The notes under the pieces are model-generated. The model ran no database searches, had not been told where the DNA came from, and was given only the letters and a program-made list of their open reading frames with translations. The position numbers and the translations under genes are program-made. Shown in pieces: positions 1,849 to 54,979 of a stretch of DNA of 64,000 bases; the stretch's first letter is position 1, and every line of letters starts with the position of its first letter. Source of the DNA: Rhodospirillales bacterium (GTDB lineage: Bacteria > Pseudomonadota > Alphaproteobacteria > JAJFIK01); NCBI GenBank assembly GCA_021775005.1, contig JAJFIK010000009.1, forward strand, positions 6,616 through 70,615, in the 5' to 3' direction.

Positions 1849-3006
1849 TTAAAACCGAAGGCCCACGCCGACCGAGAGCGCACTGCCGTCTGTTTCAAAT
1901 TCGTTGGTAATGCCGCCACGGGTGTCGCGTTCAAAATTGAAATGTTGATAGACCACACCGACGTCAAATCCGGCACCGATATTGTATTGCGCGCCGAGCA
2001 AGAAACCGTCGTATTCACCATCGGTGCTAATGCCACCAAGATAAAAGTCATCCTTGCGATTGCCGGACGTGCTTTCACCAATTTGTGCTAAAATCCTTAC
2101 CGGCCCTTGCTCATAGGTGAGCGACCCGATGAATTGGTCCTTGTCGTCAAAGCGTTTGGTTGACCATGGATCCTCATAACGCAGGTCATGCAAGGTGTAT
2201 TGCACGCCGCCGGTAAAGGGCCCGACAGCAAGGGCGCCACCCAACGATGTTTCGGTTGGGGTGTTGCGCGAGTCGCCACTTTCACCCCTGAGATATGCAC
2301 CATAAAGGCGCAAGCCATATTTATCTTCCCATGAGTAGCGCCAGTCCACTGCAACTTCCCAGGTATTGCGGCCAAACTCTTCGTCAACGCAATCGGAGAA
2401 GCCGGTGTCATTCTTACATGGGTTAGGCGCGAAGGACGCGCCGAGGCGGAAGCCGTCAAAGCTTGGTGTAATGTAGGAAATTTTCACGGCATCTTCTTGC
2501 GCCATGCTGTCCAAGTTGATCCGATTGCGGAGCGACGTCCATGTAAGCCCGGTATCCACATCGTAGGGTGCAAACGGATCCAAATTGTATTCGTCATTGT
2601 TATTGAGGCTTTGGCCGAGCATGCCGGGAATGATGCCGTCGCTGAAGGTCGAGAACACCCCGTCGGTTTGCCCAAATTGTATTTCGCCCATGTAGCCCGC
2701 TACGAACACAAAAGCTTCGTCAATTACATCGCCGTCACCGTCACCGTCCTGATCACTCTCCAAATCAAGTTGGATGTTGGCGCCGATTCTAATGCCATTA
2801 TCGAGGGTGATGGAGGGAAGGAAAAACACCTCGCCATCGCTACCAAGATTGACCTCATTTGGATCCGCAACAGCATCAGTTTGCGCATAGGCGACCATGG
2901 CGTTGTAATAGCCGCCGACCCGAACATCCCACTCCGCCGCCTGCGCTGCCGTTGCCGCCATGCTCGCGGCCACCAGTGCCGTTGTACCCATAAAAAATGA
3001 TTTCAT
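1849..3006 (-). CDS. Outer-membrane porin (alphaproteobacterial porin family) with acidic DGDGDGD insert
   Basis: Signal peptide MKSFFMGTTALVAASMAATAAQA, beta-rich body, C-terminal ...GLRF. Shares FTPNPCKNDTG and EFGRN(T/F)WE motifs with the next ORF. Confidence 0.7.
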   Translation of the reverse strand: MKSFFMGTTALVAASMAATAAQAAEWDVRVGGYYNAMVAYAQTDAVADPNEVNLGSDGEVFFLPSITLDNGIRIGANIQLDLESDQDGDGDGDVIDEAFVFVAGYMGEIQFGQTDGVFSTFSDGIIPGMLGQSLNNNDEYNLDPFAPYDVDTGLTWTSLRNRINLDSMAQEDAVKISYITPSFDGFRLGASFAPNPCKNDTGFSDCVDEEFGRNTWEVAVDWRYSWEDKYGLRLYGAYLRGESGDSRNTPTETSLGGALAVGPFTGGVQYTLHDLRYEDPWSTKRFDDKDQFIGSLTYEQGPVRILAQIGESTSGNRKDDFYLGGISTDGEYDGFLLGAQYNIGAGFDVGVVYQHFNFERDTRGGITNEFETDGSALSVGVGLRF

Positions 3007-3220: not shown

Positions 3221-4345
3221 TTAGAACGTGATCGCGTTCTCGAAGAAGACCGCCAAGCCGTCTTCATCGTCGCTAACGCCTGAATCATCCACGTCCAGCG
3301 TTTGCAAGCCGAAGCCAAACTGCATGCCGGGGCCGTACATATAGGTCACGCCGCCAAGCCAGCTTTGGAATTCTTCGTCTTCCACTGAGCCATAATCCAT
3401 GTCGCCTTCAGCAGTGCCGTAGGACAGCATAAAGGACCACGGGCCGGTTTCATATGATACGCCGGCATCCCAGTGATCTTGCTCAGTGGTAACACCGAAG
3501 CCGCCGCCGGTTTGCTTGTTGGCGTAGGAGCCGCCAACGGTGAAGCCACCAAAGTCCAACGAGCCACCGAGGCTCCATTCACGAGGCTCTTCAGCGCCAG
3601 AGCCCTGTTCGCCTTGGCCGTAGCCGCCGGAGAGGCTGAGCGTGACATTGTTGAAGTCCTGGCGATATGTGCCGGACGCTTCCCAGAAGTTGCGACCAAA
3701 TTCGGTCGTCACGCAGCCAGAATAGCCAGTGTCGTTCTTACACGGGTTCGGTGTAAAGCTGAGCCCAAACTGAAAGCCATTCAAGTCCGGCGTAAAGTAC
3801 GTGAGCTTGATATTGTCGTTGGAGAAATCCGCATAGGTATCAATGGGATTGCCTACGCCAGGTGTTGCATTGGTGAGCCCAACTTGCGAGCTGGATCCAA
3901 ACCCGTAGGGGCCAAACGGATCCATGTCCGGATCGTTGTGCCCGTGCTCTGCAAAAATCAGCGGAGCAGTAACGGCCATTTGGTCCATCACGCCGTCGTT
4001 TTGGCCAAACTGGATGCGGCCAAAGCCACCGTCGAACTGAATGTAAACTTCGTCGATGGTGTCAGCATCGCTATCCACGGCGCCGTCATCTTCCAATTCA
4101 AGATCGGCACGGAAGGAGACCTTCAGGCCATTGTCCAAAACCGTCGAGCCGCGGAAGTGAATTTCAGAATCAGAACCGAAGTTAATTTCGTTCGGATCAC
4201 CAGAGCTGGTGTCGACGTCAGTATAAGCAACACCGCCAACATGGTAACCGCGCAGGCCGAGATTAATTGACTCAGCTGCGACTAACGGGGTGCTCATCGC
4301 TGCGACGGCAACAAGTGCCGTTGTCCCCAAGAGTATCTTTTTCAT
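3221..4345 (-). CDS. Outer-membrane porin, paralog of 1849..3006
   Basis: Start at MKKILLGTTALVAVAAMSTPLVAA signal peptide, C-terminal aromatic F, motifs shared with the neighbour. Confidence 0.7.
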   Translation of the reverse strand: MKKILLGTTALVAVAAMSTPLVAAESINLGLRGYHVGGVAYTDVDTSSGDPNEINFGSDSEIHFRGSTVLDNGLKVSFRADLELEDDGAVDSDADTIDEVYIQFDGGFGRIQFGQNDGVMDQMAVTAPLIFAEHGHNDPDMDPFGPYGFGSSSQVGLTNATPGVGNPIDTYADFSNDNIKLTYFTPDLNGFQFGLSFTPNPCKNDTGYSGCVTTEFGRNFWEASGTYRQDFNNVTLSLSGGYGQGEQGSGAEEPREWSLGGSLDFGGFTVGGSYANKQTGGGFGVTTEQDHWDAGVSYETGPWSFMLSYGTAEGDMDYGSVEDEEFQSWLGGVTYMYGPGMQFGFGLQTLDVDDSGVSDDEDGLAVFFENAITF

Positions 4346-4880
4346 GCGTCCCCTCCACCGAGAGCAAATAAGACGACCGGCCACCGGACCGGTCTGTCAA
4401 TTTCAAGTTCGTGGTTAAGAATGCGCACTTAAAGGGGGTTCTTCAAGCGAAGAACGCCGCGATTCGAGGCACGCGTCCGTTTCATGACATATGTGTGTCT
4501 GGCGCGCTACAGTTCTGCGACGCAGCATTTCTACTATTGAGGGTGTATTGCAATCAGGGGTGGAGGTCGCTTCCTTTCAGTGGCGCTGATAGTCCAGCGA
4601 TTTCAACAGCTTAGAACCCAGTTGAGCGTTCAACAAAGACTAGCAAACCGTCCGCGTCCTCGGTGTCACCCGTAGTGTCCAGCAAGCGCAGACGCAAGCA
4701 AGTCCTGCGGGTCGGCTCAAGGCCAGTTTGCCTATCGGGGCCCCAGGCATTGATCACCCCCGCCCAGCCCCGCGCTAAAACCTTGGCCAATAGGGCTGTT
4801 TTTCGCTGGAAAGCCACGCGCGCCCACGGTATAAGCGCCCGAAAGACGTACCGAATTGTCGGTTCTTAAGGAGTTCAGAA

Positions 4881-5626: not shown

Positions 5627-8233
5627 ATGAGCACACCCGAGCGCTACAACGCCAAACCCATCGAGCAAAAATGGCAACGGATCTGGAATGAACGCGATGT
5701 GTTTTTGGCGCGCGCGGATTCCGGCAAGGACAAGGCTTATGTCCTGTCCATGTTCCCTTATCCCTCGGGGCGCATTCATGTGGGCCATACGCGCAATTAT
5801 GCCATGAGCGATGTGGTGGCGCGCTTTAAGCGCGCGCAAGGCTTTGAAGTGCTGCAGCCCTTTGGCTGGGATGCATTCGGTTTGCCGGCCGAGAACGCCG
5901 CTCGCGAACGCGGCGAACATCCTGGTCCCTGGACCCGGCAAAATATCGAAGCCATGAAAGAGCAGCTCAGCATTATGGGTTTTGCGCTCGACTGGTCCCG
6001 CGAGTTCGCTACTTGCGACGCGAGCTATTACCAACACCAGCAGCGCCTGTTTGTGGATTTCTACAACGCTGGCCTTGCCTATCGCAAAAGCGCGACGGTG
6101 AATTGGGACCCGGCGGAAAACTCCGTGCTCGCCAATGAGCAGGTGGTGGACGGCAAGGGCTGGCGTTCCGGTGCCACGGTGGAAAAGCGTCAACTCACCC
6201 AGTGGTTTTTCAAGATCACTGACTATGCCGACGACTTACTGGATGCCGTTGAAAACAAGCTGACACGCTGGCCCGACAATGTGCGGTTGATGCAGGCCAA
6301 CTGGATCGGCAAATCCCATGGCGCGAACATTACGTTCAAGCTTAAAGGCAGCGGTGCTTCTGCAGCGCAAGGCGGCTTGGACGTTTACACCACGCGCCCG
6401 GACACGATTTTCGGCATGAGCTTTTGCGCCATTGCCGCCGATCACCCTTTGGCCAGGGCGCTGGCAAAAGATAACGCGGATCTGGCGGCTTACTGCGCGG
6501 AGGTGGCGAAAAGCTCCACCATGCAGGCCGATCTCGACACTGCGGAAAAAACCGGTTTTGACACCGGGCTGAAAGCGGTAAACCCGTTTGACGCTGCATC
6601 TGAAGTGCCTGTCTTCGTGGCCAATTACGTGCTGATGGATTACGGCACTGGCGCCATCTTCGGCTGCCCCGCCCATGACGTCCGCGACTTTGAGTTTGCG
6701 CAGAAATACAATCTTGCAATCCCCACGGTGGTGAGCCCCGACGGGGATGCCTCGTTCAACGTGCTCAAAGACGGCGCGGCCTATGTGGGCCCTGGCGCAT
6801 TGATCAATTCAGAGTTTCTCGATGGGCTCGGCGTGGATGACGGCATTGCGGCGGTATGCAAAGCGCTGGAAGCCAAAGCCATCGGCAAGGGCACAACGGT
6901 TTTCCGTTTGCGCGATTGGCTGATCTCGCGCCAACGCTATTGGGGCTGCCCGATCCCCATGATTCATTGCGAGGCCTGCGGCGTGGTCCCCGTGCCCGTT
7001 GATCAATTACCGGTAAAGCTGCCGGACGATGTGAGCTTTGAGAAACCTGGCAACCCGCTGGACCATCACGCCACATGGAAACATGTTGATTGCCCCCAGT
7101 GCGGCAAGGCCGCGACCCGCGAAACTGACACCATGGATACCTTTGTGGATAGCTCGTGGTACTACGCGCGGTTTTGCGACAACTCGGTCGCCACCCCCAC
7201 CAATGTCGCCGCGACAGATTATTGGTTGCCGGTGGACCAATATATCGGCGGCGTGGAACACGCGGTGCTGCATTTGCTTTATGCGCGCTTTTTCGCCCGC
7301 GCCATGGCCAAGACCGGACACTTGCCGCCAAATATGAGCGAGCCCTTCGCCGGGCTTTTCACCCAAGGCATGGTGATCCACGAAACCTATAAGTCTGCTG
7401 CTGGCGCTTGGCTTTATCCCGATGACATTGAGCGCAAAGACGGCGCGGTGATTGAGCGTAGCTCAGGCAAGCCGGTAACCGTGGGCGCGGTGGAAAAAAT
7501 GTCCAAGTCCAAGCGCAACACCATCGACCCTGAAGAGATTGTCGAGCAATACGGTGCCGACACCGCCCGTTGGTTCATGATGTCCGACACCCCGCCGGAG
7601 CGCGACATCGAATGGACCCAAAGCGGTATTGATGGCGCGTGGCGCTATGTCCAGCGGCTTTGGCGTCTGACCAACGATGCGCTGCCGCATTTGCCTGAGG
7701 TGGGCGGGGCCGCGCCAGCTGCGTTCTCAGCCGAAGCAGCGGCCTTGCGCAAGACCGCCCATAAAACCGTGCGCGATGTCACCACTGACATTGCAGGCTT
7801 CCGCTTCAATCGTGCCATTGCGCGATGCTATGAGCTTGCCTCTGAAATTGGCAGCGTGGCCGGGGCGAACCGTATTGGCGGGGCGGGGGCCGCGTGGGCC
7901 GTGCGCGAGGCTTTGGAGAAACTCACTGGGCTGATCAATCCCTTCATGCCTCATTTGGCCGAGGAACTTTGGCAAGTGCTGGGTCACGAGACCTTGATGG
8001 TGGAAAGCCCCTGGCCAGAATTTGACCCCGAATTGGTGCTGGATAACACCCTCACCATGCCCATTCAGGTCAATGGCAAGCGCCGCGGCGAGATTGAGAT
8101 TGCACCGGACGCGGACAACGCTACCATTGAGGCCCTGGCCCTCGGAAACGATGCCGTGCAGCGCGCCATTGAGGGCAAGACCGTGCGCAAGGTGATTGTG
8201 GTGCCTAAGCGTATCGTGAATATTGTGGTTTAA
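5627..8233 (+). CDS. leuS: Leucine--tRNA ligase
   Basis: 868 aa with HVGHTRNY (HIGH) and KMSKS motifs and a CP1 editing domain. Confidence 0.97.
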
Positions 8234-8251
8234 AGTTCGTGTCAGAAAACA

Positions 8252-8797
8252 GTGGGTCTAGCGATGGTCAAGCAAGCGGTGAAAGTCATAATCGGTGCCC
8301 TGCTTGCGGCGTCACTGAGCGCTTGCGGATTTGCACCGCTCTATGGCGTGCACGAAGGCACCGCGTCGCGCACAGAAAATGAGCTGGCGCAGATACAAGT
8401 GCTGCCGGTGCGCGATGATCGCTTGGGCTATGACGTTTACAACGCCCTGTTTGAACGGCTCTCCCCCAATGGGGAGCCCGTCACCCCGGACTACACATTG
8501 CGGGTGCGCCTGCGCGAAGACCGGGAAGGCGTCGCCATTGAGCGCGATGCCTCCATCACGCGGTATAACTATCGCCTCAACGCCCATTACACATTGATGG
8601 ATGTGCGCTCCGGTAACGCGATCCACGAAGGCGATAGCCGCTCCATTGCGGCCTATAATGTTGTGGACAACCAGTTTGCTACCCTGTCGGCGCAACGGGA
8701 CGCGGAAGAACGCGCGGCGGTGGAATTATCGGAAGACATTCGCTTGCGCCTGGGCATATTTTTTGATCGCCAAATCAGCACCACCACCGCTCCGTAA
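8252..8797 (+). CDS. lptE: LPS-assembly lipoprotein LptE
   Basis: Lipobox LSAC, ~180 aa, located in the conserved leuS-lptE-holA arrangement. Confidence 0.7.
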   Translation: MGLAMVKQAVKVIIGALLAASLSACGFAPLYGVHEGTASRTENELAQIQVLPVRDDRLGYDVYNALFERLSPNGEPVTPDYTLRVRLREDREGVAIERDASITRYNYRLNAHYTLMDVRSGNAIHEGDSRSIAAYNVVDNQFATLSAQRDAEERAAVELSEDIRLRLGIFFDRQISTTTAP

Positions 8798-8821
8798 CCT
8801 CACATCCATAGAGGCCCGTTC

Positions 8822-9862
8822 TTGCGCCTTAAGACCAACGAGATTCAAAGCTTCATGCGCGCGGGCAAACCCCCGGCAGCGGCGGTGCTTGTCTATGGCC
8901 CCGACGAGGGCCTGGTGCGTGAACGCGGGCAGGCTTTGGCCAAGAAAGTGGTGGCGGACCTCAACGATGCGTTTCTGGTCACCGATGTATCCGACAGCGA
9001 TGTAAAGTCTGATCCTTCCGTGCTCGCGAACGCCCTTGGCTCGCTCTCGCTTATGGGGGGCGACCGCGTGGTGCGCTTGCGCCCGGGCACAGATGCGGTT
9101 TCCAAACATGTGGAAGCCGCTTTGGCGGAACTGCAACCGGCTGAGCAAACCGATGCCTGGCTTATCATCGAAGCAGGCGACCTCACACCGCGCTCAGGTT
9201 TGCGTAAATTGTTTGAAGCCTCAAAAGTGCATGTGGCATTGCCGTGCTACGCCGAGGAAGGCGCGGCGCTGGAAGATCTCATTCGCGGTGTGGTGAAGGC
9301 CGAGGGGCTTAGCATTGCAAGCGATGCCATGCCGCTTTTGACCGAACGCCTGGGCGGTGACCGGGGCCTGGTGCGGCGGGAGCTTGAAAAGCTCTGCCTT
9401 TACGTGGGTGACGCCGAGGAAGTCACAGCAGACGATGTGCGCACCATTATTGCTGGTAACGACGAAGCGCGCTTTGACGGCTTGATCGATGCCGTGGCCA
9501 GCGGCGACATGGCCCGCGCCGACCGGGAATTGCAAAAGGCGCTGATCTCTGGCACCCAGGCGCCACAGATAATCCGTATGCTGACGAACCAGATGAAGCT
9601 GCTGCATTTGCTTGCCGGACTCACGGAGAAAAATGGCAACACCCAGGATGCCATCCGCACCTTGCGCCCGCCGGTGCGTTGGCCGCGCGATAAAGCATTG
9701 GCGCGACAGGCGGCCCTATGGCCGCGCCCCTCTGCAGAGCGCGCTTTGGTGCTGCTCGAGGCCGCCGATGCGGACTGCAAAACCACCGGCCAGCCCCACG
9801 GGGCCATTTGCGGCCGCGTGGTATTGTCGCTCACGCGCCAGGCCGCGGTTGCCCGGCGCTAG
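8822..9862 (+). CDS. holA: DNA polymerase III delta subunit
   Basis: 346 aa with VLVYGPDEGL N-terminal clamp-loader signature. Synteny after leuS-lptE. Confidence 0.85.
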   Translation: MRLKTNEIQSFMRAGKPPAAAVLVYGPDEGLVRERGQALAKKVVADLNDAFLVTDVSDSDVKSDPSVLANALGSLSLMGGDRVVRLRPGTDAVSKHVEAALAELQPAEQTDAWLIIEAGDLTPRSGLRKLFEASKVHVALPCYAEEGAALEDLIRGVVKAEGLSIASDAMPLLTERLGGDRGLVRRELEKLCLYVGDAEEVTADDVRTIIAGNDEARFDGLIDAVASGDMARADRELQKALISGTQAPQIIRMLTNQMKLLHLLAGLTEKNGNTQDAIRTLRPPVRWPRDKALARQAALWPRPSAERALVLLEAADADCKTTGQPHGAICGRVVLSLTRQAAVARR

Positions 9863-9883
9863 TTATGCCTTAAGTGAAGGGCT

Positions 9884-10291
9884 ATGGACGAGAAGATTGC
9901 CGCGCAAGACCTGATTGTTTTTGACGGGCTTTGCGCCGCGTGCTCCCGCTTTGTGCGCTTTGTGGTGCACCACGACAAGGCAGCGCGGTTTTCATTTGTC
10001 ACCGCGCAGTCACCAACGGGCCGCGCGCTTTATGCGGCACACAATCTCGACCCCGATGAGATGGAAACCAACATCATCATTGTAGGCGGCACCGCCCACA
10101 CCAAGATGCAAGGCCTCGCCATTGCCATGGGGACGCTGGGCAAACCGTGGTCGCTTTTGGCGGGCTTGCGCGCGCTGCCAAAACCTTTGGGGGACGGGCT
10201 TTATGATCTTATCGCCGCGAGCCGCTATTTCTTTGGCCGCCGCGTCTGCCCTCTGCCGTCAGAGGATTTGCGCAATCGCTTAATTGAGTAA
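9884..10291 (+). CDS. DCC1-like thiol-disulfide oxidoreductase family protein (DUF393)
   Basis: FDGLCAACSRFV... with a DxxCxxC motif near the N-terminus, ~135 aa. Confidence 0.65.
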   Translation: MDEKIAAQDLIVFDGLCAACSRFVRFVVHHDKAARFSFVTAQSPTGRALYAAHNLDPDEMETNIIIVGGTAHTKMQGLAIAMGTLGKPWSLLAGLRALPKPLGDGLYDLIAASRYFFGRRVCPLPSEDLRNRLIE

Positions 10292-10299
10292 GAGGGCGG

Positions 10300-10640
10300 T
10301 GTGCCCGCGACGCCTGCGCCTCCTTCCCCCTTGCGGGGGAAGGCCGGGATGGGGGGAAGTTGTGGCACGTGGAACTTCCCACGCCGTCATGTTCGGGCTA
10401 GACCCGGACATCTGGCTGCGCCCGCGTCTTGAGTAACCACTTTTGCGCAAACTTTAAGTCAGCCAGATCCCCGGGTCTCGCTAGCGCTCGCCCGAGGATG
10501 ACAATTCAAATTAGTTCGACGTCCCCCGGTTTATCCGGGGGACCCATTTTAAAGCAGCCCTGGGCACCCCGGATAAACCGGGGCGCGTCAAGAAAGGGAG
10601 GCGAAGCGCGCCTTTGCACCGCCCCCGACTCGCCGCAAAC
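10300..10640. repeat. Cluster of REP/MITE-like palindromes
   Basis: Hairpins at 10323..10344 (ccttccccc/gggggaagg) and 10354..10380. Half MITE copy at 10466..10502. 17-bp inverted repeat ccccggtttatccgggg / ccccggataaaccgggg at 10524..10583. Confidence 0.55.
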
Positions 10641-10650
10641 TAGCGGGATG

Positions 10651-11334
10651 ATTTCAACTCATATGAAACAGATTTGGCGATTTATGGAGAAGCGGTGGCT
10701 GGTGTTTTTGATCAGCGTCGTTGCCGGCGTTCTGATCGGCGCGGGTGCTGCGGACTTACCCACACTAGGCCGGGGGCAGTTTTTTGCTACATATGGCGAC
10801 TTTCTTGGCTCCGTTGTCGGCGGCCTGATCGCAGTTCTTGTTGCTTGGTGGATTGTTTCGCATGAGCGCCAGGAGATGCGGAAAGACAGAGCAAATTCAG
10901 CCGGTGATGCCGCTGCCATTCTTGCTGCGGAGATCGAGGAAGAGAAGCGGTTTATCAACAGGCGATGGGATAGCATCAAAGGCCTAATTTCTGAGTATTC
11001 GAACTACAAGACCCTTGAGGACGTGCTGCTCTCAGATCGGGAGTTCATTGCCGAACTCTTGCTTCACAGCCCCCTTAAAAATGTCGAGGTTCGCGAAGTT
11101 GCAATTGCAAATCGATGGGAAAGGAACGTTCTAAGCCGACACTTTTTTGCATTGCAGGTGTTCACTCTAATTGAACTCTATGCAGAGGTTCTTGTTGATC
11201 GACAAAGAATTCTGCTGCGGCGTATGCCGCGTGAGGATGAGCTCAAACGTATCAACGGGCACATCAAGACCTATTATGGTTTGCTAGAACTAATCGAGTT
11301 GGACCTGCAGAACCTGGCCAAGGTTGGGACCTAA
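10651..11334 (+). CDS. Hypothetical membrane-anchored protein (two N-terminal TM helices), low GC
   Basis: ORF 10429..11334. Start likely MISTHMKQIW..., because upstream codons overlap the palindrome cluster. AT-rich composition relative to neighbours. Confidence 0.45.
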   Translation: MSTHMKQIWRFMEKRWLVFLISVVAGVLIGAGAADLPTLGRGQFFATYGDFLGSVVGGLIAVLVAWWIVSHERQEMRKDRANSAGDAAAILAAEIEEEKRFINRRWDSIKGLISEYSNYKTLEDVLLSDREFIAELLLHSPLKNVEVREVAIANRWERNVLSRHFFALQVFTLIELYAEVLVDRQRILLRRMPREDELKRINGHIKTYYGLLELIELDLQNLAKVGT

Positions 11335-11344
11335 ATCTCCCAGC

Positions 11345-11427
11345 TTACCACGCTAACCGCTTTGCAATGTCATCAAGCTGTTCCAGCGTTGAGTAGCTGA
11401 GCGTAACCTTGCCCGCCACGCACCCCC
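11345..11427 (-). pseudogene. Fossil 3' end of a second, divergent parB allele (encodes ...VAGKVTLSYSTLEQLDDIAKRLAW*)
   Basis: Reverse-complement translation matches the last 22 codons of resident ParB (GKVTLSYSTLEQLDDIAKRLA). It carries 8 synonymous codon substitutions and one terminal change, and is cut upstream by a TGA at the MITE boundary. Confidence 0.65.
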
Positions 11428-11429
11428 CT

Positions 11430-11532
11430 CGTCATCCCGGAAATCGCGCCAGCGATTGTCCGGGATCTTGCACCACGTGAGGGGCTCTGAGATTCCGGGC
11501 TCCTCGCGTCCCGCGACGCCCCGGAATGACGG
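11430..11532. mobile_element. MITE-like element copy A (TIR cgtcatcccgg ... ccggaatgacgg, two internal hairpins)
   Basis: Near-identical architecture to copies at 35717..35813 and 42375..42468. Confidence 0.6.
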
Positions 11533-11558
11533 CGTGGGGCAGAGTGAGCAAGGATCAC

Positions 11559-12428
11559 CTATCGCGCCAACCGCTTTGCGATGTCATCAAGTTGTTCCAG
11601 CGTGCTGTAGGACAACGTGACTTTGCCCGCCTCGCCCTTGTGGCTGATCTCAACTTTGAGGCCCAAAGCATCCATCAGGCGTTTTTCCAGCGCCCGCGTG
11701 TCGGCGTCTTTCGGTGCTGGCGTTTTACCCTTGCTCTTTGACTTAGCGCCAACATCGCCCCCGTCTTTCGCCAGCGCTTCGGCCTGACGCACAGAGAGCC
11801 CCTCGGCGATAACCTGTTTGGCAAGTTGCGCCACCTCCGGCGACATCATGATGGCGCGGGCGTGGCCGGCGGAAAGCCGTCCGTCCGCCAGCATCACCTG
11901 CACCGCTTCGGGCAACCCCAAGAGCCGAAGCGTATTGGCAATATGCGGCCGCGACTTGCCGATGTATTTCGCCAGCGCGTCTTGAGTGTAGGAAAACTCA
12001 TCCATCAGCTGGCGATAGCCCAAGGCTTCCTCGATGGCATTAAGATCAGTACGCTGAACATTTTCCACAATGGCGATTTCAAGCGCCTGGGAATCATCAA
12101 GCTCTTTCACCCGTACCGGCACGTTGTGCAGTTGCGCGCGCTGGGCGGCGCGCCAACGGCGCTCCCCGGCAATAATCTGATAACGCCCGGCAACACCGGG
12201 CTTTGGCCGCACGATGATGGGTTGGATCACGCCGCGTTCCTTCACGCTGGCGGTGAGGTCTTTCAAATCATCTTCAGAAAAAATGCGCCGGGGTTGATAG
12301 GGGTTGGGTTCCAAAAACTCCACCGGCATTTCGGTGACCTCAATCGGGCCCGCTGCAGCATCTTTCCGCGCGGGGGCGTCTTCTTCACCCATCAGGGCTG
12401 AGAGCCCGCGACCTAATCCTCTTGCCAT
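11559..12428 (-). CDS. parB: Chromosome partitioning protein ParB
   Basis: 289 aa with the GERRWRAA ParB box and HTH, adjacent to parA. Confidence 0.95.
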   Translation of the reverse strand: MARGLGRGLSALMGEEDAPARKDAAAGPIEVTEMPVEFLEPNPYQPRRIFSEDDLKDLTASVKERGVIQPIIVRPKPGVAGRYQIIAGERRWRAAQRAQLHNVPVRVKELDDSQALEIAIVENVQRTDLNAIEEALGYRQLMDEFSYTQDALAKYIGKSRPHIANTLRLLGLPEAVQVMLADGRLSAGHARAIMMSPEVAQLAKQVIAEGLSVRQAEALAKDGGDVGAKSKSKGKTPAPKDADTRALEKRLMDALGLKVEISHKGEAGKVTLSYSTLEQLDDIAKRLAR

Positions 12429-12475
12429 ATCACCGAAGCCATTGCTGGCTTTCCTTCTTGTTCGCTCGCGCGCAA

Positions 12476-13312
12476 TTACGCCGCGCGTAAATCTTTTTCC
12501 CGCTGGATGACTTCACCAGCGAGGCGGATATAGGCCTGACTGCCCGCGCATCTGAGATCATAAACCAGCGCCGGCATGCCGTGGCTGGGCGCCTCAGACA
12601 CCCGCACATTGCGCGGGATGACGGTCTTGTAGACCTTGTCGCCCATAAATTCGCGCACGTCCTTGGCCACTTGGTCAGAGAGATTGTTGCGCCGATCAAA
12701 CATGGTCAGCACGATGCCTTGTATCTCAAGCTCTGGATTGAGGGAGCCCTGCACCAGTTCTACGGTGCGAAGAAGTTGGCTCAAACCTTCCAACGCGAAA
12801 AACTCACATTGCAGCGGCACCATCACCGCGTTCGCTGCCGTCATGGCATTGATGGTGAGCAAGTTGAGCGATGGCGGGCAGTCGATCAGCACATAGGTAA
12901 ACGCCGCCGCGCTGCCCTGCGCGAATTGCTCAAACATGTCTCGGAGCCGAAATGACCGGCGTGGCGCACTGATGAGTTCCAACTCGGCTCCGGAAAGATC
13001 CACTGTGGAAGGCACAATGGAAAGGTTCGGGATCCTGGTCGGTTTCACCGCATCGGCAATGGGGGTCTCGTCCACCAGCACTTCATAGGTGGAAATCTCC
13101 CGCTCATTGCGCGGAATGCCCAGACCCGTGGAGGCGTTGCCTTGAGGGTCCATATCGATGATCAGCACCTTCTCGCCCACCGCCGCCAGCGCCGTGCCAA
13201 GGTTGATCGCCGTCGTGGTTTTACCCACCCCGCCCTTTTGATTGGCAATGGCCAGAATACGGGGCGATTTGCCCCGGCCCGGCTTTGCTTGCTCGCTTAT
13301 GTCGTCGGTCAT
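12476..13312 (-). CDS. parA: Chromosome partitioning ATPase ParA
   Basis: KGGVGKTT deviant Walker A motif, 278 aa. Confidence 0.95.
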   Translation of the reverse strand: MTDDISEQAKPGRGKSPRILAIANQKGGVGKTTTAINLGTALAAVGEKVLIIDMDPQGNASTGLGIPRNEREISTYEVLVDETPIADAVKPTRIPNLSIVPSTVDLSGAELELISAPRRSFRLRDMFEQFAQGSAAAFTYVLIDCPPSLNLLTINAMTAANAVMVPLQCEFFALEGLSQLLRTVELVQGSLNPELEIQGIVLTMFDRRNNLSDQVAKDVREFMGDKVYKTVIPRNVRVSEAPSHGMPALVYDLRCAGSQAYIRLAGEVIQREKDLRAA

Positions 13313-13337: not shown

Positions 13338-13973
13338 CTAAGCCGGGCGAAAGCCGGAAAGCTTGAGAATCTGCGCCTCTCCGGCGGTATGGCTGGGGAG
13401 GGCTTGGGCCTCAAATCTCCCCCAGGCGCGGGCGTTAGTCAATTCATCATCCGCGCTTCTGCCCTTTAGGAATAGGGCGATTCCCCCCTTACCTACAAAT
13501 GGCACCGCCAGGGGCAAAAGCTCAATGAGCGGGGCGAGGGCACGGGCTGTCACTACATCAGAGGCCCAGGGCTCAAGCACTTCCGCGCGGGCATTGTGCA
13601 CTTCAGCAGGGGCCCCGGTGGCGCGGATGGCCTCGCGCAGAAACACCGCTTTGCGGCTGTCACTCTCAATCAGATGGACTTTTAGCCCTGGACGATCGCG
13701 CCCCGAAATGGCCAGAGTGAGCCCTGGAAATCCGGCCCCACTGCCAAGGTCTGTGATCGTAGTGGCGTTCTCCGGGATCAGCGGCCAGAGCTGTGCTGAG
13801 TCCACCACATGGCGGGTCCAAACGTCTTTCAGGCTCGCTTTCGAGACCAAGTTGATTTTGGGCTGCCATTTTTCCAAAAGCGCCACATGGGCGCTGAGGG
13901 CGTCCAATGTTTCACGTGAAACAATTCCAAAAGATTTGAGCGCCTCGAGCGCTTCAGGCGGAACGGCGGACAT
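13338..13973 (-). CDS. rsmG: 16S rRNA (guanine527-N7)-methyltransferase
   Basis: GidB family, [13 protein letters not shown]-binding motif. Classic gidA-gidB-parAB order. Confidence 0.9.
13908..13923. promoter_or_regulatory. parS: parS centromere site (TGTTTCACGTGAAACA)
   Basis: Perfect 16-bp palindrome matching the canonical ParB-binding parS, inside the 5' part of rsmG. Confidence 0.85.
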
Positions 13974-15863: not shown

Positions 15864-15879
15864 TGTTTCACGTGAAACA
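15864..15879. promoter_or_regulatory. parS: parS centromere site (TGTTTCACGTGAAACA)
   Basis: Second perfect 16-bp parS palindrome, 39 bp upstream of the mnmG start. Confidence 0.85.
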
Positions 15880-15886: not shown

Positions 15887-16555
15887 CTATGGCTGCGGTT
15901 TGGTACCTATCACTTGAGGCACATCTGAAAGCTCCCGACAGTACCATTCGGTATCCGCGCATATCCACCCTATTAATCCCAACAGCCTGTCATGTTCTCG
16001 GGTCGGTGATTTATCAATAATACAATAGTGGTGCGCGATCTTGTTGCGGAACAGTCGAAATCCTTCTGCTCGTTTCATTATCGTATCCAGAGTGGTACGC
16101 GCCGGAACATATGGGAAAGATCGACTGGTCCCGACCGCCCACAGGTGTGAGCTATATCTTGCGGTCAACATACTACACCAAAAATTGAGTGGAAGTGCGG
16201 CTAAGACCTGATCTGTCGTTGGTGTGCTTCTTCGCGCCTTTTGCTCCCTCTCTATTATTTGCTCTAGCTTTATCCGATGGTGCTCCACCAGAATTCCGTG
16301 AAAGCCCGTCTCCCAAGGCCATCTATCGCCAAATCTACGATAGATTGGCTTTGCAATGGTGTTTCGCAGGGATACTTCTCCAATATGTATTGGAAGGTTA
16401 AATGCTTGAGATAACTGAATGTTCCAAGCGTACAAGCGGATGGCGTATTGATCATCACCTTTTGCTAGGCCCAGATATCTTGAGAATCGCCCACTCGACA
16501 TTGTTGACCTAATTGTCGCCAATGTGCTGGGCGTTAGAGAGAATTCGTATTGCAT
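15887..16555 (-). CDS. Abi_2-family (AbiD/AbiF-like) abortive-infection protein, low GC
   Basis: N-terminal ...YAIRLYAW... and C-terminal ...RLFRNKIAHHYCII... match Abi_2 hallmark blocks. AT-rich codon usage. Inserted between mnmG and mnmE. Confidence 0.6.
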   Translation of the reverse strand: MQYEFSLTPSTLATIRSTMSSGRFSRYLGLAKGDDQYAIRLYAWNIQLSQAFNLPIHIGEVSLRNTIAKPIYRRFGDRWPWETGFHGILVEHHRIKLEQIIEREQKARRSTPTTDQVLAALPLNFWCSMLTARYSSHLWAVGTSRSFPYVPARTTLDTIMKRAEGFRLFRNKIAHHYCIIDKSPTREHDRLLGLIGWICADTEWYCRELSDVPQVIGTKPQP

Positions 16556-35716: not shown

Positions 35717-35813
35717 CGTCATCCCGGGGCGGCAACGCCAAATCCGGGATCTTGCGATACATATCGCCGTTCGAGATTCCGGGCTCCTCGGATTACGCGG
35801 CCCCGGCATGACG
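35717..35813. mobile_element. MITE-like element copy B (TIR cgtcatcccgg ... ccggcatgacg)
   Basis: Same bipartite hairpin architecture (atcccgg..ccgggat ; gagattccgggc..gccccgg) as copies A and C. Sits in the coaE-dnaQ intergenic region. Confidence 0.6.
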
Positions 35814-42374: not shown

Positions 42375-42468
42375 GTCATCCCGGAAATCGCGGCAGCGAT
42401 TTCCGGGATCTCACGGCGTAGGTTCTTGTTGGAGATCCCGGGCGCCCGGCGGTGCCCCGGGATGACGG
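42375..42468. mobile_element. MITE-like element copy C (TIR tgtcatcccgg ... ccgggatgacgg)
   Basis: Best-conserved copy. Both internal hairpins are nearly perfect. Confidence 0.6.
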
Positions 42469-44335: not shown

Positions 44336-45139
44336 GGGGGGTCGCTTTCGCTTTGGCAGGGAAACCTCTGGGCCCCTTCCATGTGGCGGTTAGGGGTCAA
44401 GCGTCAAGGGGCAAGCGGAAAAGGGCACCTTGGGAGGCTGAATTCTTCAGATGACCGTCATCATATTAAAATGCTCTCGTCTCAAGGTCGAGACCCGGCG
44501 AATTCAGCCGACAAACTTTAAAAACACGAGATATGCAGTCCACGCCCCGCCTCCTGCGAGCGCTATGAGGGCCAACAATGGCGACGGCTGAGATGACATG
44601 CGGGGGCGTGGGGTGTGGGCTAATCGCACCGCGCGCACATAAGTGTCTTCACCGTCTCCGGGCCCTGGGCGCGGCGGCAGAATGGCAGCAAAAGCAACAA
44701 TTGCGCCGAACATCAAAGGCGAAAAAATCAGAATCCAATCCATCGATCCAACGTAACAGCCCTGCCGATTTTGCCAATGCCGCCTTGCCCGCTTCTGGAC
44801 GTGCGCCGAACCCAGGCCCCCTAGAAATACAGCTTCACTGCAGCAAGGGCGGCGCTTAGCGCCAGGCCTACCAGCAAAATCACCAGCGCGCCGCCGCAGC
44901 CCGCGCCAGATATGGGGCTCGAATTCCAATTGAAGCCCACCTGGCCCGGGGGCGGGATGTGCAAATCATTGAAGGTCCGCTCGGGGGTTCCCGGCAGCCT
45001 CCAAAATGCCGCCAAAATGCCCGCGGCGATGGTGGGGAGTAGAACAACATTTCAGCTCATGGGGCGAGCATAACAACCCCGCTGCCTTCGTGCTTTGCCG
45101 AAAACCAAGTTCCTTGCCAAGGGCACAGAATCAGGATAG

Positions 45140-45154
45140 GTTCTTGTTTTGTTC
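45140..45154 (+). promoter_or_regulatory. Alphaproteobacterial LexA (SOS) box GTTC-N7-GTTC
   Basis: gttcttgttttgttc, 18 bp upstream of the dinD ATG. Confidence 0.6.
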
Positions 45155-45171
45155 CGGTCGTGGAGTGCCAT

Positions 45172-46038
45172 ATGCGCAAGGATCTGATTTCCGAGTTACA
45201 TCGAAGATTTGAAGATGTTTCCAGCCACCTTAGTGGCACTTCTGGGGAGACGGTTGAATGCTGGACCGCCCGAGATATTCAACCCCTTCTTGGGTATGAT
45301 ACGTGGCGGCGCTTTCACGACGTTATCGTGAAAGCAATGCGCGCCTGCGAACAGTCTGGCCATGAGATTGGAGACCATTTTGTCGACGTCGGCAAAATGG
45401 TCAGTTTGGGGTCCGGAGCGGAACGAGAAGTTCCCGATATCCTTTTAAGCCGTTATGCCTGCTATCTCATTGCTCAAAACGGCGATTCCAAAAAGGAACC
45501 CGTAGCATTTGCGCAAACCTATTTTGCACTGCAAACGAGAAAACAGGAGCTAATTGAAGAGCGGCTGGCGGACGCAGAGCGCCTCGAAGCTCGAGACAAG
45601 TTAAAGAGAACTGAAAAGGAGCTGAGTGGGGCACTCTACCAGAGAGGTATCGACCAAAGGGGGTTTGCCATCATTCGCAGTAAGGGTGACATGGCACTAT
45701 TTGGCGGTCGCACCACAGCGGACATGAAGTATCGCCTCGGAATTGCCAAAACCCGCGCCTTAGCCGACTTTTTGCCGACCGTTACTATCAAGGCCAAGGA
45801 TTTGGCTGCCGAAATGACCAACCACACTGTTCGCACACAAAATTTGCATGGCCAATCACCAATCGCGGCTGAACATGTAAGAAGCAATACTAATGTTAGG
45901 GCTGCGCTCAACAAAAGTGCCATATATCCAGAAAATCTCCCGGCGGCTGAAGATGCCAAGAAACTGGAGCGCCGCGTTCAAAAAGAAGAAATTGAGCTCG
46001 CCAAGCGCGCCGAAGACGCCAAACTAAGAGGTCGCTGA
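45172..46038 (+). CDS. dinD: DNA-damage-inducible protein D (DinD family), low GC
   Basis: ...WTARDIQPLLGYDTWRRFHDVI...VDVGKMVSLGSGAEREVPDILLSRYACYLIAQNGD... aligns closely to E. coli DinD. Preceded by a LexA box. Confidence 0.7.
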   Translation: MRKDLISELHRRFEDVSSHLSGTSGETVECWTARDIQPLLGYDTWRRFHDVIVKAMRACEQSGHEIGDHFVDVGKMVSLGSGAEREVPDILLSRYACYLIAQNGDSKKEPVAFAQTYFALQTRKQELIEERLADAERLEARDKLKRTEKELSGALYQRGIDQRGFAIIRSKGDMALFGGRTTADMKYRLGIAKTRALADFLPTVTIKAKDLAAEMTNHTVRTQNLHGQSPIAAEHVRSNTNVRAALNKSAIYPENLPAAEDAKKLERRVQKEEIELAKRAEDAKLRGR

Positions 46039-46089
46039 GCTGATTTGGTCTAACAACCCCGCCGCCTTCGCCAAGGCTGCAGCTCAGCT

Positions 46090-46533
46090 TCAGGCGGGCA
46101 GCGTCTTGCACATCATGATCTTGTTGCCGTCCTGGCCCACACGCTCCCAGCCCAAGCGCTCATAAAACGCAATGGTTTTGGGCATCAAAGCATGAGTTGT
46201 GAGGCGCAATTCCTGTTGGCCCCAGTTGTGGGCGCAGGCTTCCGCGTGCGCCAGAAGCTGCCGCCCCAGCCCCTGGCCTTGGGCGGCCGGGTCCACCGCC
46301 AAATTTGCCAAATGCACAAAGTCATCCGCCGCCGACAGAACCATCACGCCAGCAATGTGGCCTTTGAGCTCCACCACCCAGGCGCGGGTCTGCGCGATGT
46401 CATCGGCGAGGCCCTGGGATACCGGCGGCAGGTCGTGGATGGTGCTCTGAAAGGGGGCGTAAGCAGCAACGACGCAGCGCTTCAGGGCGGCCAAATCTCC
46501 CGCAACGGCTTGGCGGATCAAAGCCGACCTCAC
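46090..46533 (-). CDS. GNAT family N-acetyltransferase
   Basis: 147 aa, ...QGQGLGRQLL... acetyl-CoA-binding motif A. Confidence 0.7.
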   Translation of the reverse strand: MRSALIRQAVAGDLAALKRCVVAAYAPFQSTIHDLPPVSQGLADDIAQTRAWVVELKGHIAGVMVLSAADDFVHLANLAVDPAAQGQGLGRQLLAHAEACAHNWGQQELRLTTHALMPKTIAFYERLGWERVGQDGNKIMMCKTLPA

Positions 46534-47552
46534 GCCATAAGCCCGGCTGATTTGGCCAGTGCTGCTAGGTCCGCCTCAGGCCGCGCGCCAAAATGGCTAA
46601 TGACCTCAGCGGCTGCCAGGGATCCCAGATGCCCGCAAGTTGCGGCGTCTCTGCCCGTCGCCACGCCATAAAGAAACCCGGCGGCATATTGGTCGCCAGC
46701 GCCGGTGGTATCCACCACTTTGGCCACGGGGCTAGCGGAAATCACATGAACCTCGCTGTCCCACAGCACCACCGAGCCATGCTCTGAGCGGGTGAGGGCG
46801 GCGACGGGGCAGTGATGGCCTAACGCTTGGAGCGCGTCATCAAAACTCTCGGTCTCATAAAGCGACTTTAGCTCCGCCTCATTTGCAAAAAGAATGTCCA
46901 CTTCGCTCTCGATAAGTTTGAGGAAGTCAGCGCGATAGCGATCCACGCAAAATGAGTCCGACAAGGTCAGTGCCACTTTGCGCCCTGCCCCATGAGCGAT
47001 TTTGGCGGCCTTATAAAACGCCGCACGGGCAGGGGCGGGGTCAAACAAATAACCCTCAAGATAAGTCACGCCGGCGTCAGCCACGTCGGCCTCGATGACA
47101 TCATCGGGGGTCAGCGCCCCGGCAGCGCCGAGATAAGTGCTCATGGAGCGCTGGGCATCGGGAGTGACAAGGATAAAGCATCGCGCCGTCGCGGCACCCG
47201 CTTCCGCGATCGGGGTTGCGAACTGAACCCCGGCGGCGCGGATGTCATGGGCGAATACTTGCCCCAATTGGTCATTGCGCACCTTGCCCACAAAGGCACC
47301 CTTGCCGCCAAAAGCCGCCACGCCGTGAATCGTGTTTGCCGCAGAGCCGCCAGAAATTTCCACCGCCGGGCCCATGGCTGCATAAAGTTCCTCCGCGCGG
47401 GCATCATCAATCAGCGTCATGGCGCCTTTGGTGATGGCATTAGCGGCAAGAAACGCATCGTCCGCGTGGGCGAGCACATCCACAATGGCATTGCCAATGC
47501 CCAAGACATCAAAGCGAGAAGCGGTCATGAAAACTCCTGAATTAACCTGCAA
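46530..47552 (-). CDS. PfkB-family carbohydrate/adenosine kinase
   Basis: DTTGAGDQYAAGFLYG C-terminal PfkB signature. GG dipeptide near the N-terminus. Confidence 0.8.
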   Translation of the reverse strand: MQVNSGVFMTASRFDVLGIGNAIVDVLAHADDAFLAANAITKGAMTLIDDARAEELYAAMGPAVEISGGSAANTIHGVAAFGGKGAFVGKVRNDQLGQVFAHDIRAAGVQFATPIAEAGAATARCFILVTPDAQRSMSTYLGAAGALTPDDVIEADVADAGVTYLEGYLFDPAPARAAFYKAAKIAHGAGRKVALTLSDSFCVDRYRADFLKLIESEVDILFANEAELKSLYETESFDDALQALGHHCPVAALTRSEHGSVVLWDSEVHVISASPVAKVVDTTGAGDQYAAGFLYGVATGRDAATCGHLGSLAAAEVISHFGARPEADLAALAKSAGLMA

Positions 47553-52235: not shown

Positions 52236-52643
52236 TCAGTTACTTGCCTTGTCGCCGCCTGCGCGGTCTTTTGAGCGATGGATGATCAGGGAAAGTACGA
52301 CCCACCAAATGGCAATAATGGCCCCTGTGAGAATGTCGGCGTTTACGCCCTCAGAAACATAGCCAGCGTTTTGCGCAATGGTCATGCCCAGCGATCCTGC
52401 CAGCACTGCACCTGCCCCGATTAGCGACACGCGCAGAAGGCGATAGGCCTTTTCGCTCTTCTCGACCACTCGAGTGAATTTCCCGGAGATGCTCAAGGCC
52501 ATCATCGATGCGGGCAAGAACCCCATGGCGATCAGATAGGCCCACATGCGGGTGGTGTCTTGCGCAATGGCGACCCAGGCAAGCGCGCCCACAAGCCCGA
52601 TCATCAACCAAACTCCAAGCGTATTTACCTTGTTGGCGGACAT
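52236..52643 (-). CDS. Small 4-TM membrane protein (paralog of 55269..55694), last gene of SdpR/SdpI-like operon
   Basis: Shares AMGFLPASMMALS and LIGAGAVLAGS blocks with the 4-TM protein ending the second operon. Confidence 0.5.
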   Translation of the reverse strand: MSANKVNTLGVWLMIGLVGALAWVAIAQDTTRMWAYLIAMGFLPASMMALSISGKFTRVVEKSEKAYRLLRVSLIGAGAVLAGSLGMTIAQNAGYVSEGVNADILTGAIIAIWWVVLSLIIHRSKDRAGGDKASN

Positions 52644-52692
52644 AGCTGTCCCTCCTTTTGTTAGTATACAGATTAAAAAACGTAAGCGGTGG

Positions 52693-53274
52693 TTAGCTCA
52701 TTCGCTGATTTGTTGACATCAGCACCCAGCGCCCAATAACGAGCACAACGGCGCCAGCACATATGATCGTTGAAACAATATTGGCGGGCCCGATGGGCAA
52801 GGTGAGCCACGCACCCGCATAGCCGATCCCGGCAACAACAAAGGTCCATCCTGAAAAGCGCTGCAGAGATTGAATGGCGGCCGGGGAGTGGCGTTTCTCA
52901 AGCATGGGCTCCAGCCGTTTGGGCATGAAGTTGCCGATGATCACTAGCACCAGCCCAACCCCAACACCGTAAGCGCGGCGCACCACATCACCGCCTGCGC
53001 TGCCAAGAAGGCCGGCTGCCTCTGCGGCGCTGAACCCCAGCGTTAGGGTAAGAAGGCTTGCAGCCAAAACGGCCGAGCCGCGAATTTCATTGAGGCCCTT
53101 GCGGCCGCGCAACAAGACCTCAAAGGCCCCCCAGGCGACAGGCAGGAACAATCCAGATATTGCCCATGTCATGGCGTCTTCTGGGTCGAGTGCCCAATTT
53201 GTCGTCGCCAATCCAGCCACAAGCGCAGCCCCCGCCAGCGGAAAGGCGAGAGGTATGGTGCGGGTTTCGGTCAT
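52693..53274 (-). CDS. SdpI/YhfL-family immunity-like membrane protein (copy 2)
   Basis: Start at MTETRT. GNFMPKRL...QRFSGWTFVVAG matches SdpI N-x-x-(G/P)-x-R ... (H/Q)R-x-x-G-W motifs. Paralog of the upstream gene. Confidence 0.55.
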   Translation of the reverse strand: MTETRTIPLAFPLAGAALVAGLATTNWALDPEDAMTWAISGLFLPVAWGAFEVLLRGRKGLNEIRGSAVLAASLLTLTLGFSAAEAAGLLGSAGGDVVRRAYGVGVGLVLVIIGNFMPKRLEPMLEKRHSPAAIQSLQRFSGWTFVVAGIGYAGAWLTLPIGPANIVSTIICAGAVVLVIGRWVLMSTNQRMS

Positions 53275-53302
53275 ATGGTTTTCCTTTCCTGGCGCGGGCT
53301 GA

Positions 53303-53866
53303 TTAGCGCGGCCTGCGCGCAAGGGCGCGGCGGGCCAAAACCAATCCAGAAGCAATGAGGGCCAAGGCGGTTGCAACAATATTGGCAGGCACAGTTGGCA
53401 AGATGAGCCATGCGGCGATGTAGCCGAGCCCGGCCAGCACAAATGCCCATCCAGTGAAGCGGTGCACGGCTTGAACGCGCACGGGGTCGAACTCCGCGTC
53501 ATCAAGGGGCGGAAGCCGTTTGGGGATGTAATTGCCCATGAAGATCAAAACGCCGCCCATAAGCAGCCCCAGCGCATTGCTTGCCAAGGTTCGGGCCTGT
53601 CCGTCGTATAGGTCGATTGATATGCCAATCGTGAAGAGCAACGGGAAGGCGAGCATGAAACTGGCAAAGAAGATCGAGCGGCGCACTTCATCCGAAGGCG
53701 CGTTACGCAATCCCTCAAGCACACCCCAGGCGATAGGAAGCATCACGGCAACGCCCGTCCACACAAACCAAAGCTCACGTTCCAAAAGCCAAACCGTTAG
53801 CGCCAACCCCGCCACCAGCGCATTGGCGCTCATGGGGTAGACCGCGCGCATCACTTTATCGCTCAT
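53303..53866 (-). CDS. SdpI/YhfL-family immunity-like membrane protein (copy 1)
   Basis: GNYIPKRL...VHRFTGWAFVLAG. Immediately downstream of an ArsR/SdpR-like regulator. Confidence 0.6.
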   Translation of the reverse strand: MSDKVMRAVYPMSANALVAGLALTVWLLERELWFVWTGVAVMLPIAWGVLEGLRNAPSDEVRRSIFFASFMLAFPLLFTIGISIDLYDGQARTLASNALGLLMGGVLIFMGNYIPKRLPPLDDAEFDPVRVQAVHRFTGWAFVLAGLGYIAAWLILPTVPANIVATALALIASGLVLARRALARRPR

Positions 53867-53869
53867 GGT

Positions 53870-54169
53870 TCAGTCCTCCTCATCGGGGTGCTCAACAGGC
53901 GCCCCTTCCATCTTCATGCCGAAGACTTCAGCAAAGCCGAGCAGCGCGTCTTCCAAAACCGAAAGCTTGATGCGGTAGATGATGGCCTTGCCGTCCCGTG
54001 TGGCATCCACAAGATTCGCTTCTCGCAAAACCGCAAAGTGGGCGGACATGGTGGGCTTTGAGACAGCAAATTCAGCCGCCAGCTCTCCGGCTGTCTTAGG
54101 GCCCTGACGCAGCAGCTCCAGCACCTTGCGGCGGGTGGGGTCGGCCAGGGCTTTGAAGACGTTGCTCAT
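53870..54169 (-). CDS. ArsR-family (SdpR-like autorepressor) transcriptional regulator
   Basis: 99 aa. ALADPTRRKVLELL...ELAAEFAVSKPTMSAHFAVLREANLV wHTH. Confidence 0.8.
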   Translation of the reverse strand: MSNVFKALADPTRRKVLELLRQGPKTAGELAAEFAVSKPTMSAHFAVLREANLVDATRDGKAIIYRIKLSVLEDALLGFAEVFGMKMEGAPVEHPDEED

Positions 54170-54350
54170 GCATAGATATTTAGCTAATTATCTAAATGAT
54201 TGCAAGAGGAAATCTGAAATTTATCCAAAAATGGCTGAAGTCTGGGTTGGATTGTCAGGTTGGTTAACCAACGGCGGCTGAGTGAGTTAAGCCAGTCAAC
54301 TCATCAACAAGGCTTGACAGATGGCAATCTTTAGTCGAGAGTGCCACGGT

Positions 54351-54437: not shown

Positions 54438-54462
54438 CACTAACCTCCCTGGAGACCGAAAA

Positions 54463-54975: not shown

Positions 54976-54979
54976 AAAA

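Follow-up and report, generated by a model that had tools for sequence, protein, structure and literature searches.

The chromosome-partitioning gene parB of a Rhodospirillales bacterium (GenBank assembly GCA_021775005.1, contig JAJFIK010000009.1) is followed, on the far side of a miniature inverted-repeat transposable element (MITE), by a second copy of its own last codons. We analyzed this fragment, which we call the fossil, within a 64,000-nt stretch of the contig (the window). The resident parB (11559..12428, minus strand) is intact, encoding 289 aa with ParB_N, HTH_ParB and ParB_C domains, and an identical protein is on record as P0001. It sits in a conserved alphaproteobacterial cluster of porins, DUF3576, leuS, lptE and holA, then parB, parA, rsmG, mnmG and mnmE. 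The last 24 parB codons with their TAG stop (11559..11635, minus) recur in direct orientation, spaced 214 nt downstream, as the fossil (11345..11421, minus), in which 22 codons protein-identical to the resident copy are followed by a Trp codon and a TAA stop. A repeat search returned the pair as 76 nt with 80% identity; self-blastn within the window gave E = 4e-12 and composition-corrected tblastn gave E = 4e-8. No third copy of the parB tail was found in the window. Homology ends downstream at the stop codon and upstream within codons -23 to -26. On that side the fossil is cut off at codon -24, with a TGA in frame at codon -29. Identical runs between the two copies reach 11 nt at most, and the 137 nt that separate them consist of a 100-bp MITE and a further 37 nt.

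Upon codon-by-codon comparison, we found that the resident tail and the fossil both encode the 22-residue peptide AGKVTLSYSTLEQLDDIAKRLA, and that 8 of the 22 codons differ, all synonymously, by a total of 12 nt. The differences (resident/fossil) are Lys AAA/AAG, Val GTC/GTT, Leu TTG/CTC, Ser TCC/AGC, Ser AGC/TCA, Gln CAA/CAG, Ile ATC/ATT and Leu TTG/TTA; both Ser codons (2/2) have switched between the TCN and AGY sets. At the differing sites the bases are T5, G4, A4 and C3, with all four bases present in both copies. The last residue is Arg (CGA) in the resident gene and Trp (TGG) in the fossil, and the number of frameshifts between the two is zero. These observations bear out an earlier sequence-only reading, which had described a second parB tail across a MITE with silent codon differences only, a W/R difference at the end and a changed stop. 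The statement that all changes are synonymous holds at the amino-acid level; when paths are counted formally by the Nei-Gojobori method, both Ser switches and one of the Leu changes pass partly through nonsynonymous paths (nonsynonymous differences, nd = 5.25).

Under random change, a substitution in these 66 nt is synonymous with a probability of 0.25-0.31, and all eight changed codons would keep their residue with P = 1.4e-5 to 9e-5. The peptide was preserved in 0 of 200,000 simulations of 12 random substitutions. The sequence-only reading had argued that neutral decay of a duplicate would not spare the protein, and these values agree with it. With the Ser codons excluded, the proportion of synonymous differences (pS) is 0.40, the synonymous distance (dS) is 0.56 and the proportion of nonsynonymous differences (pN) is 0.02; overall, dS between the resident tail and the fossil ranges from 0.56 to 0.69. 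Zero residue changes over ~50 nonsynonymous sites limit neutral drift to at most ~0.06 substitutions per site by the rule of three, and this ceiling for the fossil is small next to the silent divergence between the copies. Since the differences preserve the protein, the copies must have diverged while both were working genes. The terminal Trp of the fossil is most simply one C-to-T change from CGG, hence at most one decay mutation, and a real ParB (P0012) also has Trp at that last position. Judged by this substitution pattern, the fossil derives from a functional parB allele at a synonymous divergence of ~0.6; the fragment itself is non-functional, and it died recently relative to the divergence time.

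The residues of the fossil also bear on how close its source was. It carries LSYS and IAK, which are lacking in the ParBs of relatives at 66-70% identity; these nearest ParBs differ from the resident protein at 6-9 of the 22 positions, LSYS/IAK included. Because the fossil shares such lineage-specific residues, its source was a closely related functional parB, which agrees with the earlier claim that the fragment came from a functional parB of a different lineage. Among pairs drawn from 120 alphaproteobacterial ParBs, the last 22 aa are identical in 0.8% at 80% overall identity, 4% at 85%, 12.5% at 90% and 52% at 95%. Family-level relatives use different codons at 40-60% of conserved residues, a level that amounts to saturation, and 51 of 501 conserved Ser residues (~10%) have a switched codon set. 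ParBs that match over this end are thus almost always 85-90% identical or more across the whole protein; the source ParB most likely had at least this identity, with silent sites that had diverged strongly, as in another species of the same genus. An end of homology at the stop codon is the expectation for orthologues with near-saturated silent sites.

The arrangement is found in two assemblies. A contig from Logan (SRR15505515_241794; 2,328 bp), a k-mer assembly made by a second assembler without scaffolding, is 100% identical to window 10902..13229 and spans the end of a neighboring orphan open reading frame (ORF), the fossil, the MITE and parB. With identical runs of 11 nt or less, the copies offered a graph assembler no bridge from one to the other.

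The MITE between the copies is a complete, REPIN-like element of 100 bp (11431..11530) with the core GTCATCCCGG...CCGGAATGAC and two internal hairpins. It possibly occupies 11423..11538 if C-rich 8-nt flanks, present on 4 of 10 MITE termini, count as part of the element. Its terminal inverted repeats, several dispersed copies and lack of coding capacity are those of a MITE. Two other full copies lie at 35718..35812 and 42375..42466, making three in the window compared to zero expected by chance, and a fourth was found in a relative with a 66% identical ParB (L032:966-1059). Because the family is common to that relative, it is old in the clade. By direct reading, none of the four copies is flanked by a direct repeat indicating a target-site duplication, and the flanking sequences are not conserved across copies. 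The element shares with repetitive extragenic palindromic (REP) sequences, REPINs (REP doublets forming hairpins) and MITEs a size of 100 bp, terminal inverted repeats, hairpins, the absence of coding sequence, multiple copies, and positions behind gene ends and in convergent gaps. We know of no such element that carries or duplicates gene tails, and it is only at this copy that parB-tail repeats occur; the other copies here are without associated gene-tail repeats. The family, GTCATYCCGG...CCGGNATGAC, typically lies directly behind gene ends.

On the parB side of the element, the 28 nt between the parB stop and the MITE (11531..11558, minus) have no similarity to parB coding sequence. The sequence-only reading had the fossil truncated later by MITE insertion, which would leave the remainder of the fossil beyond the MITE; the 28 nt found there are unlike parB, and this order of events is not supported. 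On the other side, a 9-nt junction stretch, ACCCCCCTC (11422..11430), separates the end of fossil homology from the MITE core, and the gap shrinks to 1 nt if the C-rich flank belongs to the element. The CCACGC at 11416..11421 is ambiguous between the CCTCGC of resident parB and the inverted MITE flank CCCACGC. This ambiguous stretch of 4-6 nt is a possible microhomology, short and noticed post hoc.

Between parB and holA we observed 1.7 kb, compared to gaps of 15-400 bp in ~15 relatives whose parB and holA are directly convergent. Since the 1.7 kb are lineage-specific and the convergent order is ancestral, the junction has been rearranged. Starting from holA (8822..9862, plus), which encodes the DNA polymerase III delta subunit, the interval contains a DCC1-like thiol-disulfide oxidoreductase gene (9884..10291, plus) that is absent at this position in relatives, followed by a repeat-rich spacer (10292..10662) with a MITE-like element at ~10386..10503 and a palindrome at 10518..10589. 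Next lies the orphan ORF (10663..11334, plus), 672 bp encoding 223 aa with two N-terminal hydrophobic segments. It is convergent with the fossil, and the 10 nt between their stop codons imply that the orphan ORF sat directly behind parB in the fossil's lineage. Word-indexed and exhaustive searches found no homologue among 5.8 billion proteins or 1.84 billion representatives; database matches were weak and confined to the hydrophobic N-terminus, with nothing above curated Pfam cut-offs and nothing in PADLOC. The ORF has a G+C content of 50.6% in a window of 57.7%, and to call it a low-GC island, as had been done, is an overstatement.

Among the genes nearby, where parB neighbors holA, the DCC1-like gene, the orphan ORF and parA, we found no integrase, transposase or reverse transcriptase; the genes on either side belong to the conserved core cluster. 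We found no promoter-like site in 9800..11800, where Rfam, terminator and promoter scans gave chance hairpin matches only. Separately, the outer 13 nt of the second MITE-like element, CCCACGCCGTCAT (10378..10390), are the exact inverse of 11526..11538, ATGACGGCGTGGG. This perfect inverted pair forms the outer ends of two different MITE-like elements and brackets the spacer, the orphan ORF and the fossil. A composite transposon spanning 10378..11538 was considered and not adopted: it is without a target duplication, and a chance landing beside parB is improbable.

None of ~30 parB loci in other genomes, the closest at 66-70% ParB identity, has a second parB tail. The fossil is therefore not a conserved regulatory element, as a duplicate present in all relatives might have been. 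The relatives have a single parB, which also led us to reject a tandem parB paralogue. In one relative (L028; GCA_054033475.1, ParB 70% identical), methyltransferase, metallo-beta-lactamase-fold and response-regulator genes, not holA, follow parB (7880..12500), so the junction downstream of parB has been rearranged more than once in the family.

The donor lineage that a database comparison was expected to reveal did not appear in GTDB species genomes, JGI metagenomes, viral contigs, plasmids, phages or 5.8 billion proteins. By ParB, the best match was 56% in one genome per GTDB species, 70% in JGI metagenomes and 70% in the 5.8 billion proteins (self excluded). A degenerate DNA pattern for YSTLEQLDDIAKRL had 0 matches in metagenome and viral contigs, and 10292..11640 had none against plasmids or phages. 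A search with the C-terminal 56 aa of ParB alone returned two unrelated fragments and missed the self match, and was uninformative. This negative is an absence from databases, not an absence in nature.

A screen of the window for similar fragments, first with the last 35 residues of each ORF of 120 aa or more and afterwards with 63 complete proteins, gave exactly one other short match of the same type. It is a remnant (44754..44810, minus) of codons -20 to -3 of a PfkB kinase gene (46530..47552, minus), 1.7 kb downstream of that gene on the same strand. Its 18 codons comprise 5 identical, 11 synonymous and 2 nonsynonymous, and at least 11 of 13 changed codons being synonymous has P = 1e-5 to 1e-4. 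The sequence between these copies contains a GNAT gene that overlaps the kinase stop with its start, as well as a Bro-N gene of 51% G+C. Logan contig SRR15505515_122664 is identical to window 44486..47154. The composition-corrected E value is 7e-4 per query over 63 queries, and proximity on the same strand helps. The remnant is a probable second scar of the same kind, with moderate statistical support, which suggests that such scars recur in this genome.

Taken together, we consider it somewhat better than even (a probability of roughly 0.55) that the fossil is a scar left when DNA was exchanged with a congeneric lineage and one of the junctions, next to the MITE, was illegitimate. The donor would have had a ParB with the same C-terminus, encoded by codons diverged by a synonymous distance of ~0.6, and a linear piece of its chromosome would have integrated at the parB-holA junction. 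One crossover would have been homologous, outside the repeated segment and at a distance. The other join would have been illegitimate, falling 1 to 13 nt past the hairpin-forming MITE downstream of parB, a pattern corresponding to homology-facilitated illegitimate recombination. An illegitimate join on the wrong side of the gene end would keep the last 24 codons of one lineage beside the complete gene of the other. What the data show directly is the repeat, its differences that all preserve the protein, the lack of a counterpart in relatives and a real linkage, present in both assemblies; transfer, recombination mechanism and polarity are all points that we infer. Either the fossil and the convergent orphan ORF may have been imported and joined behind the resident parB and MITE, or they may be native and the present parB with its MITE imported; the two polarities fit equally well. 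Codon usage leans weakly: the resident copy uses slightly commoner codons (summed log frequency of -9.3 vs -12.1, mostly through the rare TTA), and a comparison of eight codons in a genome of weak codon bias settles nothing. In Alphaproteobacteria the vehicle could plausibly have been a gene transfer agent, a suggestion from general background and not a result.

An import of linear DNA with one homologous and one illegitimate end requires the fewest steps and is the best reading of the locus. As in homology-facilitated illegitimate recombination described experimentally, the join of foreign to resident DNA would lie in a short stretch of ambiguous origin (PMC3240628); junction microhomologies of 3-10 bp are typical there (PMC3240628), and the possible one of 4-6 nt here, short and recognized after the fact, would fall within this range. 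Further shared features are novel DNA beside a conserved gene, no need for a recombinase gene, and a diverged relative as donor. Laboratory events differ in that they usually delete a similar amount of resident DNA, whereas a partial duplicate is left here; our case is also an inferred one, its homologous end, donor and uptake route being unobserved.

Several points weigh against this exchange. Both Ser codons are switched (2/2) compared to ~10% per conserved Ser in saturated relatives (p ~0.01), an odd double switch that simple orthologous divergence does not predict; both Ser positions are highly variable among relatives, which eases passage via other residues. It is not possible to place the homologous crossover or to delimit the imported block, the junction microhomology is short and post hoc, and both assemblies probably come from the same reads. 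With no donor or sister genome in any collection searched, the transfer is not directly seen.

The sequence-only reading had offered a homologous or Campbell-type event that delivered the adjacent low-GC island. A homologous crossover in the repeated segment does not agree with identical runs of at most 11 nt, which are too short for RecA; the same runs make the pair stable against RecA deletion, and the 76 nt are not the crossover site itself. We regard as unlikely the Campbell form of the idea, in which a circle bearing a related parB fragment entered by a single crossover and a deletion then left the MITE and the last 24 codons. The original duplication would have been longer and heterologous, with vector between the copies, and the deletion possibly promoted by the MITE. 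Single crossovers of circles do yield, experimentally, partial duplications of 109-950 bp of the homologous locus (PMC3240628), and direct repeats of part of a target gene with one intact copy are common to both situations (PMC3240628). With the C-rich flank counted, the fossil also ends at most 1 nt from the MITE terminus, as a transposon-mediated adjacent deletion predicts. However, the inserted molecule is expected between the repeats, and the 137 nt there hold only the MITE and 37 nt, with no vector remnant. The model needs at least two events, neither a target duplication nor a transposase is seen, and the sequence flanking the MITE is not conserved from copy to copy. The present repeats are too diverged for a crossover site, and the orphan ORF lies outside them, so that this model does not deliver it.

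Site-specific integration at parB codon -24 is a less probable account, one to which we give about the weight of a long shot. The two copies would be the attachment sites attL and attR, and the element between them would have decayed to a MITE-bearing 214 bp. Islands that insert in the 3′ end of a gene may supply a replacement tail. The locus has a form that would correspond, an intact gene with a putatively element-supplied tail and what would be the displaced, truncated original tail downstream in direct orientation; silent differences would follow from evolution of the element's copy in other hosts. The probable PfkB case has 1.7 kb including the Bro-N gene between its copies, and the shared 11-nt identical blocks could act as a core. 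Recombination between att sites is a general mechanism of integrative islands (PMC7563491). Compared to such islands, however, the parB pair is without an integrase, an island between the repeats or a long exact core. No integrase lies between or beside either pair, the repeats are 72-80% identical, and the parB interval is only the common MITE, which is found elsewhere without such repeats.

With some doubt beyond that, one may imagine that the genome harbors small insertions that enter the last 20-25 codons of genes, each with a recoded replacement tail, an idea that we rate as quite improbable. If true, such insertions could enter essential genes like parB without loss of function, and the thorough recoding (Ser sets switched, no run longer than 11 nt) would have been selected as a barrier to recombinational loss. 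The parB and PfkB kinase genes would then be the first two members, within 64 kb. In a variant of this idea, the displaced tail may be expressed as a 24-residue ParB-derived peptide. The signal in question is a GTG at codon -24 of the fossil with GAGG 7 nt upstream, which together open a possible 24-residue micro-ORF, VAGKVTLSYSTLEQLDDIAKRLAW (11345..11419, minus).

The same micro-ORF is central to a further alternative, which strikes us as slightly more improbable again, in which the fossil is an old in-place duplicate under selection and translated as a 24-residue micro-protein. The product would match the final strand plus helix of the domain through which ParB dimerises, and the purely silent differences would be the result of purifying selection. 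The GTG start, the GAGG at the right spacing, a frame open to TAA and a fully conserved peptide are consistent with this. On the other hand, the start and motif were noticed post hoc, the motif is buried in the MITE's outer hairpin stem, the promoter scan gave no promoter-like site, no relative examined has such a copy, the PfkB scar is without a start codon, and the prior for a functional 24-residue duplicate is low.

We see very little chance that the assembly placed sequence from two co-occurring strains or species in tandem. Although the contig is metagenome-assembled and both assemblies are probably of one run, the unscaffolded Logan contig reproduces the 2,328 bp with no mismatch, and a de Bruijn graph has no path from one copy to the other when their shared runs do not exceed 11 nt. 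The protein collection searched, which includes Logan assemblies, holds no second ParB above 70% identity, and the PfkB scar is likewise reproduced in Logan. Lastly, an in-place tandem duplication of the parB tail with the downstream copy decaying neutrally merits next to no credence: a direct repeat does lie at short distance beside a hairpin-forming element, but ~72-75% of random changes would be nonsynonymous, the observed pattern has P ≤ 1e-4, and the Ser set switches need two or three base changes each.

Two programmed systems were also considered and rejected. A diversity-generating retroelement pair likewise has a near-copy of a gene 3′ end shortly downstream, but the mismatches here are not adenine-only or confined to the adenines of one copy, the encoded protein stays the same and the neighboring genes include no reverse transcriptase. 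A shufflon or silent cassette is ruled out by the orientation, the identical protein and the base spectrum.

If the exchange with a congeneric lineage is true, the fossil is a natural and datable trace of diverged lineages having recombined, with an illegitimate join as the outcome. To our knowledge, such events are well studied in the laboratory but have rarely been described from wild genomes. The locus also shows that in this lineage the origin-proximal junction of parB and holA, which is fixed in most of the Alphaproteobacteria sampled here, has been reopened. In practice, short remnants of gene tails that differ only silently are a cheap marker for the ends of imported blocks, with no sequenced sister required. 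What is known of ParB or chromosome partition is unchanged by the finding: it is a small, well-preserved recombination scar and a fresh example of an already known phenomenon. Because no close relative is sequenced, its exact route is not reconstructable in detail.

Elsewhere in the cluster, we observed two perfect parS sites, TGTTTCACGTGAAACA, one inside rsmG (13908..13923) and one between mnmG and an inserted ORF (15864..15879), with 0.13 expected by chance. That ORF (15887..16555, minus; 222 aa, 47.7% G+C, no Pfam hit) separates mnmG from mnmE, two genes that adjoin each other in relatives L028 and L030; at its borders, no gene-end fossils scored above shuffled controls. Tandem Porin_4 genes (1849..3006 and 3221..4384, both minus) share ~37% mutual identity, and relatives also have porins at this position. 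Further along the window, four tandem paralogous ORFs of ~170 aa (55749..57752, minus) are 30-49% identical overall and share the N-terminus MPIDxLANYAEVFGGxAVIVSLIYLAFQVR, and related membrane-protein paralogues occupy 52236..55721.

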